Shown: in pieces, positions 911 through 51,529 of the stretch
How positions within the stretch are numbered: position 1 is the first letter of the stretch
Layout: each line of letters opens with the position of its first letter
Source: a virus
Taxonomy: Duplodnaviria > Caudoviricetes
Strand: one strand, 5' to 3'
DNA: 61,162 nt
Virus record (IMG/VR): IMGVR_UViG_3300017648_000001
Coordinates: 1 to 61,162 of that record
The notes under the pieces: generated by a model
Seen by the model: only the letters and a program-made list of their open reading frames with translations
Database searches by the model: none
Told to the model about the DNA's origin: nothing
Translations under genes and position numbers: made by a program

Positions 911-968
911 CATATTATAACCGATATAAAACAAAAAAGATAGAGATAAATTGGAAGGAGTGGTAAAT

Positions 969-2192
969 TTGGACTATGTACGACGAGAGATATTTGACAC
1001 AATTGAAGATAAAGACCTTGATTTCAAAAAGATAGCCCGTTTAATAGGTTTAACCCCTAGATCCTTTGAGTATTTTCGAAACGGAGAACGCAATCTCGGA
1101 TTTAGGTATATGATCAAATTGTCGTACGTAGTTAGTCCAAAAGAACCCCATAAAAAGTTATCAGAATGGTGTTTAAGCTTTGATAGTTCTGAGTTAATAA
1201 AAAATTCCTTTGAATACGCAGCGATCACCCGAAACGTTGATCTATTAGGTAAGTTGCTTGAACTACATAAAAATTCGACAGGAACAATTAAAGAGTGTAC
1301 ACAAATTTACGGTTTTATATACCAAGGAATGAATAATCGATTAAATTACTCAGATATCATTAAAAAAATAATGGAACTTAAAAGCATTAAAGATAGCGCT
1401 CTACAAATATTAGTTGAAATAAATAAATGTATTGGCTATTTTCATCAAAGAAGGTTTTTAACATTACCGAACGATATATACGAAATTGAGTGTAAGATTA
1501 ACAAAATGAGTGATAAAAGAGAATTATTTTTAAAAGAATGCTTTTTACATCGATTATCTGAGATAGCATGCCACTCGTATCTTCACTTAAATAATCTAAA
1601 TCTTGCACGTCACTACGCAAGAATCTTAATCAACGCAAATATGAACTTAAAAGTTAAATCCGAGGCATATTACGTTTTAGGAATGTCGTACTTAAATGAA
1701 GATGTCGACAGATGTATAAAGTACTTAGAAAAAAGTCTTTCAATCATGAAGTTGACTGGAATTGATTTTCTTGTTGAGTTTTCAGAATATAATTTAAATT
1801 GCGCTAAACTTTACTCAGATATTAAACTGCCTGATAATGCAGATCCTTCTTTACTTATGTTCGAGAGTTATAAGAATAATAAAGTTGAAAAGAAATTTGC
1901 GCTAAAAGTAATTAAAGAGAGTGGAGATCCTGATTTAATTTCTTTGTTTGAAGGAATATGTGAAGAAGGGAATAGTGAGCTTCATAATAAGTTTCATGAT
2001 TTTTTTTCTGATGCTAACTTTTACTTCGCGGCCATTGTCGTGAAGGAGCTGATGAATAGAGGAGAGAATTCAGCGTTCATTAAATCTTTAACAAAACTAA
2101 CTATTTTTAAAAAGGGAGATGTTTTATTTGAAGAAAACTTTATTAACTGTTTTAACAATCGTGACATTATTAACGGTAGCAATTGCGCTTAA
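969..2192 (+). CDS. aimR: Arbitrium-type peptide receptor (RRNPP family, HTH plus TPR)
   Basis: ~407 aa; N-terminal HTH, FEYAA motif, TPR-like AYYVLGMSYL; overlaps a downstream propeptide gene; TTG 969 follows AAGGAG. Confidence 0.85.
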   Translation: MDYVRREIFDTIEDKDLDFKKIARLIGLTPRSFEYFRNGERNLGFRYMIKLSYVVSPKEPHKKLSEWCLSFDSSELIKNSFEYAAITRNVDLLGKLLELHKNSTGTIKECTQIYGFIYQGMNNRLNYSDIIKKIMELKSIKDSALQILVEINKCIGYFHQRRFLTLPNDIYEIECKINKMSDKRELFLKECFLHRLSEIACHSYLHLNNLNLARHYARILINANMNLKVKSEAYYVLGMSYLNEDVDRCIKYLEKSLSIMKLTGIDFLVEFSEYNLNCAKLYSDIKLPDNADPSLLMFESYKNNKVEKKFALKVIKESGDPDLISLFEGICEEGNSELHNKFHDFFSDANFYFAAIVVKELMNRGENSAFIKSLTKLTIFKKGDVLFEENFINCFNNRDIINGSNCA

Positions 2193-2277
2193 TCCTACTG
2201 ACAAAAATGAGAGTGCAAGCTTAGATACTCCTGATGGCTACGTCGATTCTGCTGGTAAAGTAACTCCTGGAATGTAA
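2128..2277 (+). CDS. aimP: Arbitrium propeptide, 49 aa: MKKTLLTVLTIVTLLTVAIALNPTDKNESASLDTPDGYVDSAGKVTPGM
   Basis: Translated by hand: RBS AAAGGGAG, TTG start, Sec signal peptide, short C-terminal pro-region, overlap with the aimR 3' end, downstream terminator. Confidence 0.85.
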   Translation: MKKTLLTVLTIVTLLTVAIALNPTDKNESASLDTPDGYVDSAGKVTPGM

Positions 2278-2303
2278 GGAAAAATAAAATAAATTATTCA
2301 ATC

Positions 2304-2333
2304 GAGCGCCCAATCAAAAGGGTGCTCTTTTTT
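2304..2333 (+). terminator. Intrinsic terminator after aimP
   Basis: GAGCGCCC-loop-GGGTGCTC followed by T6. Confidence 0.8.
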
Positions 2334-2339
2334 ATATAA

Positions 2340-2357
2340 TGTTCATACGTCTGAACA
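2340..2357. promoter_or_regulatory. 18-bp operator TGTTCA-N6-TGAACA
   Basis: Perfect 6-bp arms; matches the sites at 857 and 880. Confidence 0.65.
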
Positions 2358-2472
2358 AAAATGTTTTTTGGAGACTTTGTTCGTTTTTGGCAAGAATGTC
2401 CATAAATGGTTGTATTATAAGGTCAAGCAAGAAAAATAAAAACAAAATTTTAAAAAAAGTTTTAGAAATGAT

Positions 2473-2497
2473 GTCCGAAACTAAAAGGTCGTGCGTC
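2473..2497 (+). promoter_or_regulatory. Putative phage-sigma promoter GTCCGAAA-N11-TGCGTC (copy 1)
   Basis: Same motif and spacing at 16431, 54300 and 54573, all intergenic upstream of + strand genes. Confidence 0.7.
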
Positions 2498-2525
2498 AGA
2501 GTATATGTAAGGAGGAGATAATAAA

Positions 2526-3167
2526 ATGAACGAACAACAAAAACTTCATATTAATAGTCTAGTAGGTGGTTATTTAGAGACAAAATCGGAGGTAGCCTTC
2601 GCAAGCATATACGAAGCTCTTTCGAAAGTGTACGAAAATAAACTAACGTACTGGGAGGCGACTACATCGCTAGTAGAATCGCACGACACACGGCAAATGT
2701 TCGACGATGTACTACTAAGCGTATTACGAAGCATCGAAACAAACGGAGGCGACTTCGTAAAGTTATTCGCAAGGTCGATAAACAATCGATTCAAGTCGCT
2801 ACTCCGGAAAGTACGCACTAGACGAAATTATGAAACACTCGAATCAACGTTAAACAATGACGAAGAGGATGCGGCAACATTCGAAATCGTCGACGAATTT
2901 AATCTCGAAGAAGAAGTTATCGAAGGAATTACGCGGAAAAAGAAAAACGACCAGCGGCAACTGATCGAATTTCTAGTCCGTGGGGAGAACGAAAGAACGA
3001 CGGCAATCGTTCAAACGTATCTCTCAACCGATTTGAAAACACCGACGGCAATCGGTAAGCATCTCGGTCTTGACCACAAACAAGTATCACGCATTTTGAA
3101 TCGCCTGGCGGGCAAATTCAGTACTAAACAGTTCGGAAATTATCATGACTACTTAGTAGCGCTTTAA
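2526..3167 (+). CDS. Phage sigma-70-like factor
   Basis: Region-2-like segment (FVKLFARSINNRFKSLLRK) and C-terminal HTH (TAIGKHLGLDHKQVSRILNRL). Confidence 0.7.
   Translation: MNEQQKLHINSLVGGYLETKSEVAFASIYEALSKVYENKLTYWEATTSLVESHDTRQMFDDVLLSVLRSIETNGGDFVKLFARSINNRFKSLLRKVRTRRNYETLESTLNNDEEDAATFEIVDEFNLEEEVIEGITRKKKNDQRQLIEFLVRGENERTTAIVQTYLSTDLKTPTAIGKHLGLDHKQVSRILNRLAGKFSTKQFGNYHDYLVAL
2867..3056 (+). repeat. Four RNA hairpins with an identical CGGCAA loop (boxB-like) inside the sigma gene
   Basis: GGATG/CATTC (2867), CGACCAG/CTGATCG (2948), GAACGA/TCGTTC (2995), ACCGA/TCGGT (3041). Confidence 0.7.
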
Positions 3168-3173
3168 TTTATA

Positions 3174-3219
3174 TAGGACGGATATGGCGATTAGGCATGT
3201 CGTCATATCACGGTTCCTA
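3174..3219 (+). other. Long hairpin after the sigma gene (terminator or attenuator candidate)
   Basis: TAGGA-CG-GATATGGCGA pairs with TCGTCATATC-A-CG-GT-TCCTA. Confidence 0.5.
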
Positions 3220-3314
3220 TTGCTATTATACGTTTATTCGTATAAAACGGCTATCAAAAGTGTACGACAAATGATAGTAAATTTCAACTACAAAAATATT
3301 ACGAGGTGATTACA

Positions 3315-3473
3315 ATGAAACGTAATGACGTTTACAGTCTTATTATACACGAAAATAAGTCGTCTTATTCGATAGATGACGAAAATATATACGCAATCTA
3401 TAACGGAAGCTACGCGAAGGATGAAGATCCGGCAGATTACATTCGTCCGATCAAGGCGGTGCGAGTCGGATGA
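3315..3473 (+). CDS. Small hypothetical protein (52 aa)
   Basis: RBS GAGGTG, ATG start, ATGA overlap with the next gene. Confidence 0.6.
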   Translation: MKRNDVYSLIIHENKSSYSIDDENIYAIYNGSYAKDEDPADYIRPIKAVRVG

Positions 3474-7082: not shown

Positions 7083-9257
7083 GTGGCGCCTAGATTACGA
7101 GTTAACTTAACGGAGACCACCGAAAACAACGAAGCGGTCGAGCGTATTAAAGCGGCTGGAGAACGGAAGAAGGCGGCAACCGAGACGATGGATGAAGCGT
7201 GGCAACGGATTCTATCGATGAAAAACAGCGACGCCGACCAAGCGAAGTTATTCGAAGTAAAGCGGGCGATGGCGGAAGGTACGATAGGCAGGTTGCCTTC
7301 CGATTCGTCCAAGCGTTTTAGTAAAGCGGAGGCGCTTCGGCTTCATAAACAGTTAGCGGAGAGCCAACGTGAGCAGAAAATAGCGGAGTTAGTTGCGAAG
7401 ACTCCGGATAATTACCATCTCGTTACTGACGGCAATCAGTTGCGAGGCATGATCGAAGACATTAAGAGTTCGGATTTAATAGCGGTCGACTGCGAAACGT
7501 TCGGCGAGAACGACGGCGCACTTGACCCGTGGCGAGGTGAGATGGCGGGATTCTCCGTCTCCACTCGTCAGAATCATTATTATGTACCGTTAAAGCATAG
7601 CGTTCAGTACCGACATGATTATAAAGGAATACCGCATGACTTTGTAATGTTTAAGGTTAAAGAAACGTTAGAATCGGCATCTATCGTAATGCACAACGCA
7701 CCTTTCGATTGTAAATGGTTCGCGGTTAAATACGGAATTAACTTGACGGACGCCTTACACGCTGACACTCGTATCATGGCGATGGCACTCGACGAAAACC
7801 GTTCGCATCGATTAAAAGACTTGCTTACGGATTGGCTTAAAGAGCCGAGCGATAATTTCGACCAACTGTTCGGTAAGACTCCGTTCAATGAGTTCGATTT
7901 AGACGTAGCTTTACCTTATGCTGCCGGAGATACCGAGAAGACGTTAAAACTCTACGATTGGATAATGCGACATCTTAACATGGATAAGTTAGCGGATATC
8001 AAGCGTTTAATCTTCGAAATAGAGATGCCGGTCGCTCGTCAGTTTATCAAGTCGGATATTCGCGGAATTAAGTTCGACGTAGAACGAGCGCTTAAACTTG
8101 ACGAAAAGTTAGCGAAGGAAGAAGCGGAACTACAAGCGGAAATCTTTGACCTTATCGGAAAAGAAATCAACATTAATTCGCCGATCCAATTAAAGCGCGT
8201 CTTATTCGAAGAGTTACGCCTAAACGATTACGAGAAAGGATCTACGGGAGTTCGAGCGTTAAAGAAAATAAAGAACGAGCATCCAGTGGTTACGAAGCTT
8301 CTTGAATATCGTGAGGTCGGTAAACTACGCCAGGCATTTACACAAAAACTTCCGAACGAGGTTAAGTCGGACGGTAAGATTCATCCGTGGCATAATTCGT
8401 GGGGAGCTGCGACTGGACGATTCACTTGTTCGAATCCTAATACGCAACAAATTCCGGCTAAACGTCCGGAGATCCGTCATCTATTTAAAGCGAGCGGTCC
8501 AGACCGTATTCTCGTATCGATCGACTATTCGCAGATTGAGCTCCGAGTATTGGCGCATCTAGCGAACGAGCCAGCGTTAATTGAAGCGTTCGAACAAGGT
8601 CGCGACATTCACTCGACGACTGCAGCGATGATATCTAACGGTAAATATACGTACGAAGACGTCGAAGCAAACAAAGATACCGACGGTCACGAATGTCAGA
8701 AATTACGTAAGCAAGCGAAGGTTGTTAACTTCGGCATAGTTTACGGAATGGGAGCGAATAAGCTCGGTGATACGTTAGGGATTACGAAGGACGAAGCGCA
8801 AACGATTATCGATAACTATTTCAAAGGTTATTCGGGGATCAAGCGTTATATGGACGAACAGCATGCGAAAGTTAAGAAGCAAGGATTTATAACGGACATC
8901 TTCGGAAGAAAGCGCAGATTACACTCGGAAGTAAAAGCGCGTGAGAAGTGGAAATTGTTTTCAGCGTTAAGGATGGCGGGGAATTTCCCGATTCAAGCTA
9001 GCGCAGGCTCGATACTGAAGAAAGCGGTCGTTGATATGCAGACGTTATTACCGAAACTTGATTCGTATATATTGCTACAGGTTCACGATGAGCTTGTATT
9101 TGATTGTCCGAGGAATATTTCGCGAGATTCACTGTACGAGATTGCTAGAACGATGGAACGTGCGGTTAAGATGGTCGTTCCGGTCCGGTGTGACGTAGAG
9201 ATAAATCCGGAAAGATGGCTCGAAAAAATAAACGAAACGGAGTGGTTCGATGAATAA
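7083..9257 (+). CDS. polA: Family A DNA polymerase with 3'-5' exonuclease domain
   Basis: AVDCET, HNAPFD, DYSQIELRVLAH, RKQAKVVNFGIVYG and QVHDEL motifs. Confidence 0.97.
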   Translation: MAPRLRVNLTETTENNEAVERIKAAGERKKAATETMDEAWQRILSMKNSDADQAKLFEVKRAMAEGTIGRLPSDSSKRFSKAEALRLHKQLAESQREQKIAELVAKTPDNYHLVTDGNQLRGMIEDIKSSDLIAVDCETFGENDGALDPWRGEMAGFSVSTRQNHYYVPLKHSVQYRHDYKGIPHDFVMFKVKETLESASIVMHNAPFDCKWFAVKYGINLTDALHADTRIMAMALDENRSHRLKDLLTDWLKEPSDNFDQLFGKTPFNEFDLDVALPYAAGDTEKTLKLYDWIMRHLNMDKLADIKRLIFEIEMPVARQFIKSDIRGIKFDVERALKLDEKLAKEEAELQAEIFDLIGKEININSPIQLKRVLFEELRLNDYEKGSTGVRALKKIKNEHPVVTKLLEYREVGKLRQAFTQKLPNEVKSDGKIHPWHNSWGAATGRFTCSNPNTQQIPAKRPEIRHLFKASGPDRILVSIDYSQIELRVLAHLANEPALIEAFEQGRDIHSTTAAMISNGKYTYEDVEANKDTDGHECQKLRKQAKVVNFGIVYGMGANKLGDTLGITKDEAQTIIDNYFKGYSGIKRYMDEQHAKVKKQGFITDIFGRKRRLHSEVKAREKWKLFSALRMAGNFPIQASAGSILKKAVVDMQTLLPKLDSYILLQVHDELVFDCPRNISRDSLYEIARTMERAVKMVVPVRCDVEINPERWLEKINETEWFDE

Positions 9258-10748: not shown

Positions 10749-11858
10749 TTGACGAAAACTAACGGAACTACAGCAGCGGCGGCTTTACGCGCAGGACTAT
10801 CGGAATTTCAAGGATCAAAAGGCGACCGAATCGTCCGCGAATTCCTCGAACAAATTGACGCTTACTACGCGTCACCTTCGACCGGCTTCTACGATAACCG
10901 AATCGAACGGCGATATCTCGAACAGAAACTACGCCATCTAGCGTGGAAACCGTATCCGAACGACGGTTTGGTAACGTTCGGGGCTTCCGGAACTAATCTT
11001 TGCGATAGGCAGGCAGTGTTTAAATTCGGAGGAACAAAACCGGAAAAGTCGGACGATATTCCGTTTAGAGGACGCCAACGTCGCGTCGGTAATGCGGTCG
11101 TCGATTACTTCCAGCTCGATCTCGTTCATATGCAGAAGCGTCTCGGCAAAGGCGCGAAGTTTACGATGGCTGAAGCGTGGAACGAATACGAAAATAGTGA
11201 CGGATCAACTTATCGCGTTAAAGAATGGCGTATGGAAGATGCAGCGCAAGTCCGTAAGGTCTTCGAATATGACGGAGTTAAATTCGCTATCACTGCAAAG
11301 CCCGATGGAATATTCGATTATGAAGGCGGCAACCTTTTATTCGAATATAAAACGAAGGCTAGCGGATTGGTCGCGATGAACGGCAAACTCGACTTTAAAG
11401 GCGCTCAGGACGATCACTTGCGCCAGGTTACGGCTGAATCGCTTGTATTCGGAATTAACGAAGGATTACTCGTTTATGAATCTACGGAAAAGCCGGCGTG
11501 GTTCTCGGACGAAGATAACAAAAACGTTCCGAAAACGCGTAAGACTTGGCGCGATGGTAAGCCGGTTAGCGATATCCGACCGTTCTATTTCGAAATAACA
11601 GAAGCGCAACAAGAGGCGTTATTGCGAGACTTGGCGGCTCAGGCGAAACTAATCTACGCTAAGGAAGTTCCGGAGATGGTCGTTGATATGACGAGTAAAT
11701 GCGGTTTCTGTCCATTCTCGAAGCATTGTAAAGCGTCATTAACTGACGAAGAAAGATCGTCGCTAGTCGAAGCTGAACAACGTTACGCGAAGTCTCGTGA
11801 AGCCGGTAAGTATGCGCATCGTAATCTAATAAATTATCTCGACGGAGTATCGTCATGA
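10749..11858 (+). CDS. PD-(D/E)xK Cas4-like exonuclease
   Basis: KPDG...FEYKT motif; C-terminal CGFCPFSKHC. Confidence 0.8.
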   Translation: MTKTNGTTAAAALRAGLSEFQGSKGDRIVREFLEQIDAYYASPSTGFYDNRIERRYLEQKLRHLAWKPYPNDGLVTFGASGTNLCDRQAVFKFGGTKPEKSDDIPFRGRQRRVGNAVVDYFQLDLVHMQKRLGKGAKFTMAEAWNEYENSDGSTYRVKEWRMEDAAQVRKVFEYDGVKFAITAKPDGIFDYEGGNLLFEYKTKASGLVAMNGKLDFKGAQDDHLRQVTAESLVFGINEGLLVYESTEKPAWFSDEDNKNVPKTRKTWRDGKPVSDIRPFYFEITEAQQEALLRDLAAQAKLIYAKEVPEMVVDMTSKCGFCPFSKHCKASLTDEERSSLVEAEQRYAKSREAGKYAHRNLINYLDGVSS

Positions 11859-16376: not shown

Positions 16377-16409
16377 AGCGCTCGACTTCGCCGTCGGGCG
16401 TTATTTTTT
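16377..16409 (+). terminator. Intrinsic terminator after nrdF
   Basis: AGCGCTCGAC/GTCGGGCGTT stem plus T run. Confidence 0.7.
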
Positions 16410-23605: not shown

Positions 23606-23637
23606 CGAAGAAAAGCGCTAGCTTGCCGACTAGCGCC

Positions 23638-24042
23638 TTAATCTTCAATTTCGAAACAGTACGATCCTTCGGGGTACTCTCCGTACTCCTTACCGACGTA
23701 CTCATAGCGCAACGGCAACTTCGACTCACTAACGCCAATCTCACGTATAAACACACGGGCGCTGCTATACGAACGCTTATCGAAATTGAACGGCTTTACG
23801 TCAGTAGCGCGAACCACTTCTGGCTTGGCGACGACCAGGCGCTTGTTTACCGCATCATATCCGATGATTAGTTTCGTTGGCATCTGAGCGCCCAACTTCA
23901 AAATATCACGCGTACCTGACGACAGATACAAGCGCAACTGCTTATCGATGGTTATATAGGCGCCTCCGGTCGATTCGTTAGATATCCAGCGGAATCCTTC
24001 GGGCGCTTTGTTATCGGGGGCATTTGATTTACTCGACGGCAT
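23638..24042 (-). CDS. Hypothetical protein (possibly AbrB-like fold), lone reverse-strand gene
   Basis: GAGGTG RBS 9 nt before ATG 24042; ITIDKQLRLYL pattern; hairpin at 23613-23638. Confidence 0.65.
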   Translation of the reverse strand: MPSSKSNAPDNKAPEGFRWISNESTGGAYITIDKQLRLYLSSGTRDILKLGAQMPTKLIIGYDAVNKRLVVAKPEVVRATDVKPFNFDKRSYSSARVFIREIGVSESKLPLRYEYVGKEYGEYPEGSYCFEIED

Positions 24043-24123
24043 TTTACGACACACCTCGCAATCTTAACGATTTTAGCTTTATTATACGCGAAAACTTAAC
24101 GAAAAGAAAGGGCGGAGATTATT

Positions 24124-48925: not shown

Positions 48926-48936
48926 AGGTGGTACGT

Positions 48937-49755
48937 ATGGCACGAAAAATACTCGGCATTGACGCCGGCAACTATGAAACGAAAGTAGCGGTCGAAGGTT
49001 CCGTCTATAAGTTTCGAAGTTTGCTCGGTGAATGGCGCGAAAGGAATTTGAAGTCAACGTTCGGTGACGATATGGAGTACGTTTACGAGGGAAGGCGCGG
49101 TCTAGCCGGCGATATCGTTCAGTATGAATGCGACTTTATCCGTCAGAGATTCGGTGACACTAAAGCGCACGAGGACGCTAAGATTCGGATCTTGCTCGCG
49201 GTACACAAATACGGAAGCGACGTGAATGACATCGTCGTAGGACAGCCGATTAAATCTCATACGCCAGCGCAGAAAGAAGTGATTAAGACGATGCTACAAG
49301 GCGCTCATACGCTTACGGTGAACGACGTAGAGAAGACGTTTACTATTCGGAATATCGAAGTAGCTGCGGAGGGTGCCGTCGCTTATTGGGCGTATGAAGG
49401 GCTTGAGCAAGCGTTGCGTTTTATCGATATCGGCAGCGGAACGATTAACTTCGCATCCGTTCATAAAGGGCGCTTCGTCGACCGTGATTCCTTTACGGTA
49501 AGCTACGGAGTAGAGAGCGCAAGGACACGCGATTATACCGGTTTAGCGAGCGCCATTATCGCCGAATCATCTAAACGTTGGAAGGCGGACGATGTCGTCA
49601 GAGTATGCGGAGGAGTGGCCGAAGAACTAACGATTAGGCTAGCCGAATATTACGAAAATGTCGAAGTAATAAAGCCGTGGGATTTGGCGCCAGTTTATAC
49701 GAATGCTATCGGCTGTTACGAGTTAGCGAGGGTTTTATATGAGTCGCGTAAGTAA
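48937..49755 (+). CDS. ParM/StbA actin-like ATPase
   Basis: GIDAGNYETK, AEG, IDIGSGTIN, CGG and NAIG actin-fold motifs. Confidence 0.9.
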   Translation: MARKILGIDAGNYETKVAVEGSVYKFRSLLGEWRERNLKSTFGDDMEYVYEGRRGLAGDIVQYECDFIRQRFGDTKAHEDAKIRILLAVHKYGSDVNDIVVGQPIKSHTPAQKEVIKTMLQGAHTLTVNDVEKTFTIRNIEVAAEGAVAYWAYEGLEQALRFIDIGSGTINFASVHKGRFVDRDSFTVSYGVESARTRDYTGLASAIIAESSKRWKADDVVRVCGGVAEELTIRLAEYYENVEVIKPWDLAPVYTNAIGCYELARVLYESRK

Positions 49756-49948
49756 AGGCGTAAGTTTTAACGTTTCCGACGCATATGAGGCGAGACTATT
49801 CGAATACGCAATGACGCAAGGGGCGTTCAGTAAGTTAGTCAAGCGATTGATTGCGAAGGAGATGGAAGGCGGACAGGTGGCGGTTAAGCGTCCGGTTGTT
49901 GAGGATAGCGTGGCGCGTCCGATGGATGACGTAAGCAGCTTCGTTTGA
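49739..49948 (+). CDS. ParR-like ribbon-helix-helix adaptor
   Basis: VSFN...FSKLVKRLI; coupled to ParM. Confidence 0.65.
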   Translation: MSRVSKGVSFNVSDAYEARLFEYAMTQGAFSKLVKRLIAKEMEGGQVAVKRPVVEDSVARPMDDVSSFV

Positions 49949-50098
49949 ATTTGCTTTCTCATTCCGTTCCATTCCATTCTTTCGCTCTAAATAAAACCTT
50001 AGTCGCTTTCTTATTCGTATTGTCCACGCTGAATTACTTTAGTTACGGATACTTTAGTTTTTATTTTAGTTACTACTAACGTTAAGGAGACGATATTT

Positions 50099-50326
50099 AT
50101 GTTTAATTTACCGCCAGTTAGCCTGTTCGATTTATCACCGTCAATGACGATCGGATACGTTTTAGTCGCCGGAGTTGGAATCGTATGTATCAGCGCTAGT
50201 TTCTTAGAGCGCAAGCTGTTCGGAGGATCTCACGCTTACATCTTCGAATGGATTGACCGCCTACTTAAAATCGGATTGCCTGTCGCATATATCACGATCG
50301 TATGGCGTCTATTTAGCGGTCTGTGA
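50099..50326 (+). CDS. Small two-TM membrane protein
   Basis: Hydrophobic segments; AAGGAG RBS. Confidence 0.7.
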   Translation: MFNLPPVSLFDLSPSMTIGYVLVAGVGIVCISASFLERKLFGGSHAYIFEWIDRLLKIGLPVAYITIVWRLFSGL

Positions 50327-50335
50327 GGCGTTGAA

Positions 50336-51529
50336 ATGCTAACGGGTATAAAACGATTACTAACGAAATCGAACGCTCGTACGACGCTAATAAGCGCCTT
50401 TAATGCAGGCGGAATCTATCTATCGATGAAGAATAGCGGAGGCAAGGAAATACGACGATATCCGAAGATACATTCGGTTGAGCCTGGCGAAGAGTCTACG
50501 CGCTTTGTGTTTACGTTGCCGAACGGATTTGATCCGAAAGAGGTAGCGAAAAGGGAGTACGCCTTTAAGCAAGTGTTCGGTCGGTTTATCGAATTGAAAG
50601 GCGACTTGAAGCGTTACGTGCTGACGGTTTATAAGTCCGGAATGCCGACCGAATTTAAGTATCGTTACGACGAAATTAAGGAGGCGATAAGTCAGTCGAA
50701 GTTGCCGATCGTCTGCGGTAAAGATAGAAACGGTCAGCTCGTCGTTTATGACATGCGAGATATTCCGCATTTATTAATCGGAGGGGCGACCGGCTCGGGT
50801 AAATCGACTCAGTTGCGCCAACTATTAACGACGTTGATAATCGCTTTACCTCCGAAAAAACTCGAACTATATTTAGCGGATTTAAAGAAAGCGGAGTTTC
50901 ATATATTCCGTAATGTTGAGCACGTAAAGTCTAACGTAACTCTTACACGCCACGTCGAATCTATGCTCGATTATATTAGCGAAGAAATGGATCGACGAAG
51001 CGACCTTCTCGACGTATTTGGCGTAGCTCATATCGACGACTTGCCGACAGAACAACGTAAACCTTACATCGTTTGCTGTATCGATGAGTTCGTAATGTTA
51101 CGGAAGAATCAAGCGGTCATGGCGAAATTAATCGAACTCACTGCGCTAGGTCGTGCGCTTGGAATATTCGTAATATTATCGATGCAGCGACCGGTTAAAG
51201 ACGTTCTCGATACGACGATTCGTTCGAATCTTAATGTCGCAATGGGATTCCGCGTAAGGGACGCTATCGAGTCGCGCGTACTTAATACGCCAGGCTCCGA
51301 GAAGATTGACGTTCCTGGCCGATTCTATATGGATACGAACGGAATCATGTCGGAGGTACAGTCGCCGTTACTTAGCGTTGAGGAAGCGAAAAGGCTACTC
51401 GAACCGTTTAGAGTTGCGCCAACCGAGGCGAAAGATATTACGGAGATTACGAAAGGACCGGAATTAATAGAAGAAACGCCAATCTTCGGTCAATGGGAAA
51501 CGGAGGACGATAATAATGAAGAAACGTGA
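50336..51529 (+). CDS. FtsK/SpoIIIE-family ATPase
   Basis: PHLLIGGATGSGKS, CIDEF, GRALG and MQRP motifs. Confidence 0.93.
   Translation: MLTGIKRLLTKSNARTTLISAFNAGGIYLSMKNSGGKEIRRYPKIHSVEPGEESTRFVFTLPNGFDPKEVAKREYAFKQVFGRFIELKGDLKRYVLTVYKSGMPTEFKYRYDEIKEAISQSKLPIVCGKDRNGQLVVYDMRDIPHLLIGGATGSGKSTQLRQLLTTLIIALPPKKLELYLADLKKAEFHIFRNVEHVKSNVTLTRHVESMLDYISEEMDRRSDLLDVFGVAHIDDLPTEQRKPYIVCCIDEFVMLRKNQAVMAKLIELTALGRALGIFVILSMQRPVKDVLDTTIRSNLNVAMGFRVRDAIESRVLNTPGSEKIDVPGRFYMDTNGIMSEVQSPLLSVEEAKRLLEPFRVAPTEAKDITEITKGPELIEETPIFGQWETEDDNNEET

Follow-up and report, generated by a model that had tools for sequence, protein, structure and literature searches.

Same-Loop Hairpins Within a Phage Sigma Factor Gene and a Predicted Antisense RNA That May Read Them

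Locus and gene content

The sequence analyzed here (the window) is the whole 61,162-nucleotide (nt) record IMGVR_UViG_3300017648_000001 of IMG/VR, the record of a temperate phage, complete at 61 kb, that has direct terminal repeats and carries integrase, terminase, and replication genes. An aimR arbitrium receptor gene (951 to 2192, plus strand; Pfam AimR, E value 3e-26) lies upstream of a predicted sigma-70-family (ECF-like) sigma factor gene (2526 to 3167, plus strand; 213 amino acids [aa]), which hosts the hairpin array described below. Between them is a putative aimP with its terminator (2119 to 2327, plus strand; terminator at 2304 to 2327), whose 52-aa, signal-peptide-like product has no Pfam match and is named from its position. 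The sigma protein matches TIGR02937 with an E value of 3e-8, under the curated cutoff (42 of 52 family members match), its homologues carry sigma annotation, and its predicted structure is all-helical with two domains; the best Foldseek matches of the model in the PDB are sigma factors, none reaching an E value of ≤0.001. The annotated gene order (aimR, aimP, sigma) is identical in the Bacillus phages 268TH002 and phi18-2; in Mgbh1, the sigma gene is present and aimR is absent. Directly past the aimP terminator, the inverted repeat TGTTCA-N6-TGAACA (2341 to 2358) is a candidate AimR site. No LexA boxes were found near the sigma locus in the window.

The sigma gene is preceded by a putative phage-sigma promoter with the motif TGTCCGAA-N-GCGTC (2472 to 2498, plus strand). 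Intergenic copies of this motif (2472, 16430, 54299, and 54572) together outline an early regulon, and from their positions we infer that the sigma factor activates its own promoter and drives the early operons. A comparable −35 box stands upstream of the sigma homologues, and the −10 motifs vary between homologues. Most homologues have an open reading frame (ORF) of 35 to 60 aa after sigma (3306 to 3473 in the window), the end of which, encoding a C-terminal KAV(R/K)(L/V)G, overlaps the ribosome-binding site (RBS) of the next gene.

Hairpin array in the sigma gene

A first-pass annotation, made from the letters of the window, had described four CGGCAA-loop hairpins with four different stems inside the sigma coding sequence, and all four were confirmed, with loops at 2872, 2955, 3001, and 3046. 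Hairpin 1 (2867 to 2882, plus strand; loop 2872 to 2877) has three Watson-Crick (WC) pairs and two more that include G-U, and it is a sense-only element outside the predicted antisense RNA. Hairpin 2 (2938 to 2967, minus strand; loop 2955 to 2960) has three WC pairs, a mismatch, and three further pairs, and is the predicted intrinsic terminator of the antisense RNA, with a U tract at 2947 to 2938. Hairpins 3 (2995 to 3012; loop 3001 to 3006) and 4 (3041 to 3056; loop 3046 to 3051) form on both strands with six and five WC pairs, respectively. Loop spacing is 83, 46, and 45 nt, so that the last three are 45 to 46 nt apart, and the loops encode AA, RQ, TA, and TA in two reading phases, both as first described. 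The long hairpin reported after the gene (3174 to 3219) is also present; it lies past the stop codon, is the predicted 5′ hairpin of the antisense RNA, and has a sense loop TTAGGCA (antisense AUGCCUAA) that is kept widely among homologues. A fifth CGGCAA in the sigma gene (2691) is without a stem.

Codon-preserving shuffles of the sigma gene gave four same-loop hairpins in 0 of 10,000 cases and three in 7. In a window-wide ranking of hexamers, CGGCAA came first for stems of at least 3 bp (6/47; P = 1e-4), a value that fails correction for 4,096 hexamers, and the strength of the hairpin signal therefore comes from the homologues rather than from single-window hexamer statistics. CGGCAA occurs 62 times in this genome (28.6 expected). 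The statement that protein constraint does not explain the hairpins held in part: at sites 3 and 4, the peptides T-T-A-I-V and P-T-A-I-G leave no freedom at three of the four innermost pairs, whereas the free synonymous pair is WC in 36/36 cases at site 3 (with three pair types) and in 34/34 at site 4. Rfam gave no matches at the gathering score in the window (best E value within 2200 to 3400, 2.2).

Homologues, covariation, and loop dialects

A set of 82 homologous loci was reduced to 68 distinct coding sequences (14 duplicates removed) and then to 65 (three fragments removed); a subset of 53 genes, from which 12 near-identical relatives were also removed, was used for dialects, the site-1 zone, and cross-pairing. 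A single-sequence viral scan gave no loci. Same-loop arrays are conserved in the homologous sigma genes, with three or more same-loop hairpins in 47 of 65 (0.01 expected) and in 0 of 243 neighboring control genes. When repeated hexaloops of any sequence were sought without bias, 61/65 sigma genes had one, and one of these genes (L011) has two.

Across sites 2 to 4, in an alignment of 34 of the 65, 92% of cells are paired and double changes occur at 10 of 20 pairs, a result matched in 0/500 shuffles by a control that ignores relatedness. Hairpin 3 has 94.9% of cells paired and double changes at four of six pairs; in hairpin 4, pair 15-28 is GC in 17 and CG in 13, and this G-C/C-G swap tracks PTAIG versus ATAIA. 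At site 1, where loops were picked by sequence alone, 33/38 have at least three WC pairs, drawn from 11 different 3-bp stems, and the compensatory stem changes are non-synonymous, altering amino acids. Pair 4 of this site is G-U on the plus strand in 11/33 and on the minus strand in 0/33. Further upstream and outside the antisense RNA, 12 of 29 loops have stems. The four CGGCAA hairpins are genuine and under selection.

Ten loop dialects occur among the 53 genes, CGGCAA being the commonest listed (33/53); the others are CGCCAA, CTGCAA, TTGGCG, AGGCAA, CGACAA, CTGCCA, CGCTAA, CTCCAA, and CTGGCA. Near-identical stems at three sites are shared by L002/L004 and L127/L128, and between these two sets an identical G-to-T change separates every one of the three loops. 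Loop dialects are specific to each phage, and a switch of dialect affects the sites in concert.

Nine loci lack aimR, and seven of them retain the repeated loop; a 188-aa downstream gene is present in 33 of 57. Loci recorded with the sigma module and without aimR (L003, L035 to L039, L042, L043, L060, and L126) mostly have CGCCAA or CTCCAA loops, and two come from Paenibacillus records.

Predicted antisense RNA

A cis-antisense RNA of ~282 nt is predicted on the minus strand (2937 to 3218), covering hairpins 2 to 4 and carrying the loops AUGCCUAA and, three times, UUGCCG. Its predicted leftward sigma-A promoter, directly beyond the long 3′ hairpin, has a TATAAT −10 element (3225 to 3230, minus strand) and a weak −35 element (3253 to 3248; 3/6 match). 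Among the 61 homologues with enough flank, an exact TATAAT lies within 130 nt past the stop codon on the minus strand in 39 and on the plus strand in 9 (shuffled expectation, 5.8), and 22 of the best-scoring leftward promoter sites have an extended TG.

Read on the minus strand, hairpin 2 has the form of an intrinsic terminator, with a stem of 7 to 9 bp followed by a U tract (at least 7 U in 10 nt in 54/65 homologues; absent in L015 and L073), and a terminator scan counts it among six on that strand genome-wide. At its pairs 4 and 8, G-U pairing is confined to the minus strand (23/35 and 24/35), and its apparent C-A mismatches are G-U pairs when read there; the G-U pairs of site 2 are partly dictated by the protein, and the U tract is the reverse complement of conserved Lys codons. 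From promoter to terminator, the segment measures 232 to 318 nt (median, 276) in the homologues, and the first paired base falls at the predicted +1 or +2 in 49/62. The antisense strand folds more stably in 62/62 homologues, compared with 32/62 for an adjacent upstream control segment. The antisense fold z score is −4.39 for the window, and by dinucleotide shuffling, z is lower for the antisense strand in 26 of the 28 tested (of 62), with medians of −5.4 versus −2.4. Three held-out loci fetched later all have the repeated loop and the minus-strand terminator. Four raw RNA runs contained no reads on the corresponding stretch of a homologous locus (L024:9700 to 11200). Judged by pairing and folding, hairpin 2 and the whole 3′ segment appear optimized for the opposite strand, and an antisense RNA of ~280 nt (3218 to ~2937) very probably exists. 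No conserved ORF was found on the antisense strand, where an RBS-led ORF of at least 25 aa is absent in 52/62 homologues; an antisense peptide was rejected, as such ORFs occur in 10/62 only, scattered over three frames.

A GTGT-N4-ACAC palindrome, a possible operator, lies ~75 to 140 nt past the sigma stop codon in 10/62 homologues (L006, L008, L063, L066, L068, L069, and others), mostly beside the −35 of the predicted antisense promoter. Another group (L002, L010, L022 to L027, L041, L055, L127, and L128) has a different, larger 3′ structure with CTAG arms and two GCGAACA-like repeats beside the antisense −35. Elsewhere in the window (23612 to 24086), a second leftward TATAAT (~24081 to 24086) precedes a 138-aa ORF (23638 to 24054, minus strand; no Pfam match), which ends at a minus-strand terminator with a CGGCAA loop; this arrangement may be chance or a lysogen-expressed sponge.

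Same-loop hairpins outside the sigma gene

The first-pass annotation had also listed isolated hairpins with the same loop. Under a strict test (at least four pairs, at least three of them WC), those at 7430 and 11327 pass, whereas those at 11144 and 56603 depend on G-U pairs and fail. The two that pass are candidate sites for kissing in trans and lie in a DNA polymerase gene (7421 to 7444, plus strand; codon ~115) and a Cas4-like nuclease gene (11322 to 11337, plus strand). In several homologues, PolA hairpins with differing stems occur at codons ~93 to 175, and outside hairpins turn up repeatedly in genes for polymerase, primase, helicase, loader, and nuclease.

Across 42 non-redundant loci with long flanks, 34 of 413 own-loop sites form hairpins on the mRNA strand (background, 0.65%) and 0 of 214 on the opposite strand; other-dialect loops outside sigma do so in 30/2,001. 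In 11 whole genomes, hairpins form at 23/291 early and middle sites versus 1/259 late sites (Fisher P = 7e-6, with the early/late boundary picked after the data were seen and the second loop hand-supplied for five of the 11), and at 4/354 opposite-strand sites. From one to four outside sites per genome pass the strict test. The recently switched lineages L002, L053, and L007 still have CGGCAA in their outside loops. Given this distribution, the isolated hairpins first listed belong in part to a real class. The same-loop hairpins beyond the overlap, at site 1 and in early genes, suggest kissing in trans.

What reads the loops

Kissing in register requires no loop identity; identical loops hence imply one reader for all sites. 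In the site-1 zone of the 53 genes, the best hairpin matches a downstream loop in 30, by wobble in 1, and with 5/6 pairs in 1; the best hairpin of 15 genes does not match, 6 genes have none, and a few of these 21 show a weaker match. Two CTGCAA lineages (L002 and L053) have an outside CGGCAA hairpin that is a 5-of-6 match. L007 has CGGCAA at site 1 and CGACAA at sites 2 to 4, and G-U pairs bridge the two in the direction that is needed but not in the other (−4.9 versus −0.4 kcal/mol). Dissimilar loops coexisting in one gene (Hamming distance of at least 3; 36 ordered pairs, which are not independent) surpass matched random loops in cross-pairing (P = 1.4e-4), whereas coexisting loops at Hamming distance 2 have no such advantage over random ones (mean, −1.6 versus −2.4). 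A flexible protein reader would be served equally well by a shifted GGC core.

The TTGGCG and CGCCAA dialects are exact reverse complements of each other. The CopA/CopT RNAs of plasmid R1 use the CGCCAA/UUGGCG loop pair. The two dialects equal the IncI-type loop pair (UUGGCG in the title of Asano 1998, CGCCAA in IncK primers), and GCC in the RNAI loop is critical for kissing (PMC10724649). The YUNR motif is found, in the sense or the antisense loop, in the CGCCAA, CTCCAA, CGCTAA, TTGGCG, and CTGGCA dialects and in the 3′ hairpin loop (UUAG); in its strict form, it is missing from the dominant CGGCAA (UUGCCG) and from CTGCAA, CGACAA, AGGCAA, and CTGCCA. Seven of the ten dialects read UUNNNG on one strand. 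As the reader of the loops, an antisense RNA is more probable than a protein.

Some other candidates were considered and rejected. Neither AimR, missing in nine loci, nor the 188-aa gene product (gene in 33/57 loci) is universal enough to be the reader. The loop does not mimic the sigma −10 element, which varies in homologues without tracking the loop (by eye). The 3′ hairpin loop stays AGGCA-like whatever the dialect and is not a dialect-specific partner; a search for a separate trans-encoded, sense-strand partner hairpin gave one candidate in 11 genomes; and recombinase-type spacer homology does not fit hairpin arms that are not conserved in sequence.

Proposed mechanism

We put the probability of the following model as a whole at about 0.65: matched loops would kiss the predicted ~280-nt antisense RNA, silencing the sigma mRNA and setting a threshold. 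From promoter, terminator, and loop anatomy, we infer that the antisense unit is transcribed and acts in these steps. Host sigma-A would transcribe the antisense RNA, starting just past the sigma gene and ending at hairpin 2. Antisense UUGCCG loops would kiss CGGCAA loops in register at sites 2 to 4 and at the 3′ hairpin; site 1, transcribed first, would be kissed out of register and capture the antisense RNA early, which would require all loops to match. A full duplex would form next and likely be cut by RNase III, and the sigma mRNA would decay. The antisense RNA would set a threshold because sigma appears to drive its own promoter, and arbitrium-controlled transcription would have to exceed this threshold to start lysis; by holding sigma off, the antisense RNA would keep the phage dormant (a lysis-lysogeny threshold).

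Such steps have precedents. Antitoxin RNAs with 3′ overlap start by loop-loop contact (PMC6562991), RNase III can cut a loop-loop contact inside a coding region (PMC2837412), and antisense transcription sets a threshold for SigN of pBS32 (PMC10601692). The lone hairpins with this loop that lie in genes for the loader, helicase, primase, nuclease, and polymerase would likely be secondary targets for kissing in trans, or decoys. In RNAIII-coa, a loop-loop contact needs the help of a second duplex (PMC2837412), and an isolated outside loop might thus not be strong enough by itself. An extension of the model, an RNA-only repressor or immunity code in which one antisense RNA encoded within the sigma gene would use its 6-nt loop as an address for silencing sigma in cis and the tagged replication mRNAs of the regulon in trans, is tentative and somewhat doubtful.

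Alternative explanations

The first-pass annotation took the array for binding sites of an antiterminator or translational regulator at the head of an early operon. It was right to see RNA elements under selection here, which have a common loop and stems that covary and lie in a sigma gene heading an early operon; its boxB/nut reading is disfavored by the lack of a plus-strand intrinsic terminator between 2327 and 16403, by a 3′ part that favors the opposite strand, and by the absence of AimR and the 188-aa gene from many array-bearing loci. One scan found no such terminator in that interval and a second listed weak candidates only; a terminator at 16403 is directly followed by a fresh sigma-type promoter motif. 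Lambdoid N/boxB nut sites similarly combine a short stem with a loop specific to the phage and lie close to the start of early operons; here, unlike there, no intrinsic terminator has to be bypassed before 16403, multiple copies lie within a coding sequence, and the opposite strand is optimized. No N-like reader protein was found here.

In its general form, this alternative has a protein (sigma, the product of the small downstream ORF, or a host factor) bind the sense hairpins for boxB/nut-like antitermination or translational control, with the antisense unit separate or merely masking the hairpins. We consider it unlikely. The sense-strand restriction of the outside hairpins (34/413 versus 0/214) and their confinement to early operons, as for nut sites, speak for it, as do the position of the array at the head of a long operon and the ~35- to 60-aa ORF after sigma in most loci. 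The TTGGCG trio shares sigma residues R74 and L81, outside the hairpins, where random distant triples share at least two residues in 24/1,676 cases, but two of the three are related and three CTGCAA lineages have no residue in common. Besides the absent terminator, seven of the nine loci lacking AimR have the repeated loop, and 33/57 loci have the 188-aa gene; one gene (L011) contains a pair of very dissimilar loops, both of which have a partner upstream; and the reverse-complement dialects are hard for a protein reader to account for.

A second alternative keeps silencing of sigma by the antisense RNA through sites 2 to 4 and makes the sense-only hairpins decoys that soak up antisense RNA, either the phage's own or that of a resident prophage, thereby sharpening the lysis switch. 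This appears improbable to us, since site 1 is conserved in position, 71 to 89 nt upstream of the overlap in most genes, as fits capture, and only one to four outside sites per genome meet the strict test; in its favor, the outside hairpins share the loop only, with varying frame and position, they also occur in the post-16-kb operon, which has no sigma gene, and a lone 6-bp kiss fits titration better than silencing.

That the hairpins are single-stranded DNA signals (origin or priming sites) within the gene would suit the mostly WC stems and the replication genes flanking the locus, but is highly improbable, given a wobble-pair strand preference that differs by site, the promoter and terminator anatomy, and the rarity of such hairpins in the late half of the genome (1/259). 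A by-product of protein sequence and codon usage, to which the T-T-A-I-V and P-T-A-I-G peptides that fix most inner pairs (sites 3 and 4) and the frequency of CGGCAA (62 versus 28.6) would point, is refuted by the shuffles (0/10,000), the homologues (47/65 versus 0.01 expected; controls, 0/243), the non-synonymous compensatory stems of site 1, and the covariation at sites 2 to 4.

Comparison with known systems

Kissing by a cis-antisense RNA, the reading we prefer, has partial counterparts elsewhere. For SigN of the Bacillus subtilis plasmid-prophage pBS32, PasiN antisense transcripts come from promoters downstream of the gene (PMC10601692), and the likeness would consist of a mobile-element sigma factor, positive feedback, and convergent antisense transcription that keeps it below threshold. 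Homology to SigN was rejected (hhalign probability, 0.4%; tblastn against pBS32, no match at an E value of ≤1), and the pBS32 sigma gene, unlike the one here, has neither repeated-loop hairpins nor a minus-strand terminator in its coding sequence. The B. subtilis type I pairs RatA/txpA, SR4/bsrG, SR5/bsrE, and SR6/yonT have a 3′-overlapping antisense RNA like the one predicted here, and their initiation by terminator-loop kissing and duplex cleavage by RNase III also appear in our model (PMC6562991); here, the target is instead a sigma factor, and the loops lie in the coding sequence, are mutually identical, and recur beyond the overlap. The I-complex plasmids (Inc RNA/SLI, RNAI) share complementary hexaloops, the pair CGCCAA/UUGGCG, and a GCC core, and their loop changes alter compatibility (PMC10724649). 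In the I-complex and R1 systems, one leader loop blocks rep translation, whereas the sigma genes have three to five matched loops within the coding sequence, in ten natural dialects. With rot and coa, Staphylococcus aureus RNAIII uses similar loops to kiss several mRNAs, coding regions included, with cleavage by RNase III (PMC2837412), but RNAIII is trans-encoded and chromosomal, and the RNA predicted here would be encoded in cis on the opposite strand of its target.

Among arbitrium systems, the upstream arrangement of aimR, aimP, and terminator resembles that of SPbeta/phi3T aimX (PMC10769878) and aimX-aimC-aimL (10.1101/2025.11.23.689978). The post-aimP gene is here a sigma factor, not AimX, AimC, AimL, or an sro operon; the predicted antisense RNA would favor lysogeny; and AimR is missing beside the module of a related lineage. 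The word "sigma" is absent from the main text of the bioRxiv article 10.1101/2025.11.23.689978. No description of these hairpins or of the antisense RNA was found in the accessible parts of a mostly non-subscription literature that included PMC10769878, 10.1101/2021.09.20.460909, PMC3753616, PMC9977716, PMC5135824, PMC10724649, PMC6562991, PMC2837412, PMC10601692, and 10.1101/2025.11.23.689978. Relative to known cis-antisense kissing control, the matched loops in a coding sequence, the natural dialects, and the tagged regulon mRNAs would be new.

Implications and related observations

The model offers a testable answer to the lysis-lysogeny question for a sizeable group of temperate Bacillus and Paenibacillus phages (phi18-2/268TH002/Mgbh1-like) with sigma behind aimRP, an arrangement that belongs to neither of the two arbitrium outputs described so far. 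B. subtilis phages of this family are in culture, and direct tests are therefore possible. An RNA regulatory code would here lie inside protein-coding sequence and be strong enough to alter amino acids. Several of the ten natural dialects are predicted to be orthogonal to one another; the dialects could bring to light an arms race over superinfection immunity that is fought with RNA, and they could supply orthogonal antisense parts for Gram-positive synthetic biology. If the immunity code were true, dialects would define phage heteroimmunity groups, like plasmid incompatibility groups, and a concerted switch from CGGCAA to CGACAA would let a phage escape the RNA of a resident while its own RNA still kissed the old loop.

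In the window, genes for a partition protein and an FtsK/SpoIIIE-like protein (48928 to 51529) adjoin the integrase gene, and relatives were found in a plasmid collection as circular records. At one homologous locus (L024:10610), contigs from four runs share the downstream region and diverge at the sigma stop codon; this divergence is a mosaic breakpoint, at which the sigma module has been swapped as a unit.
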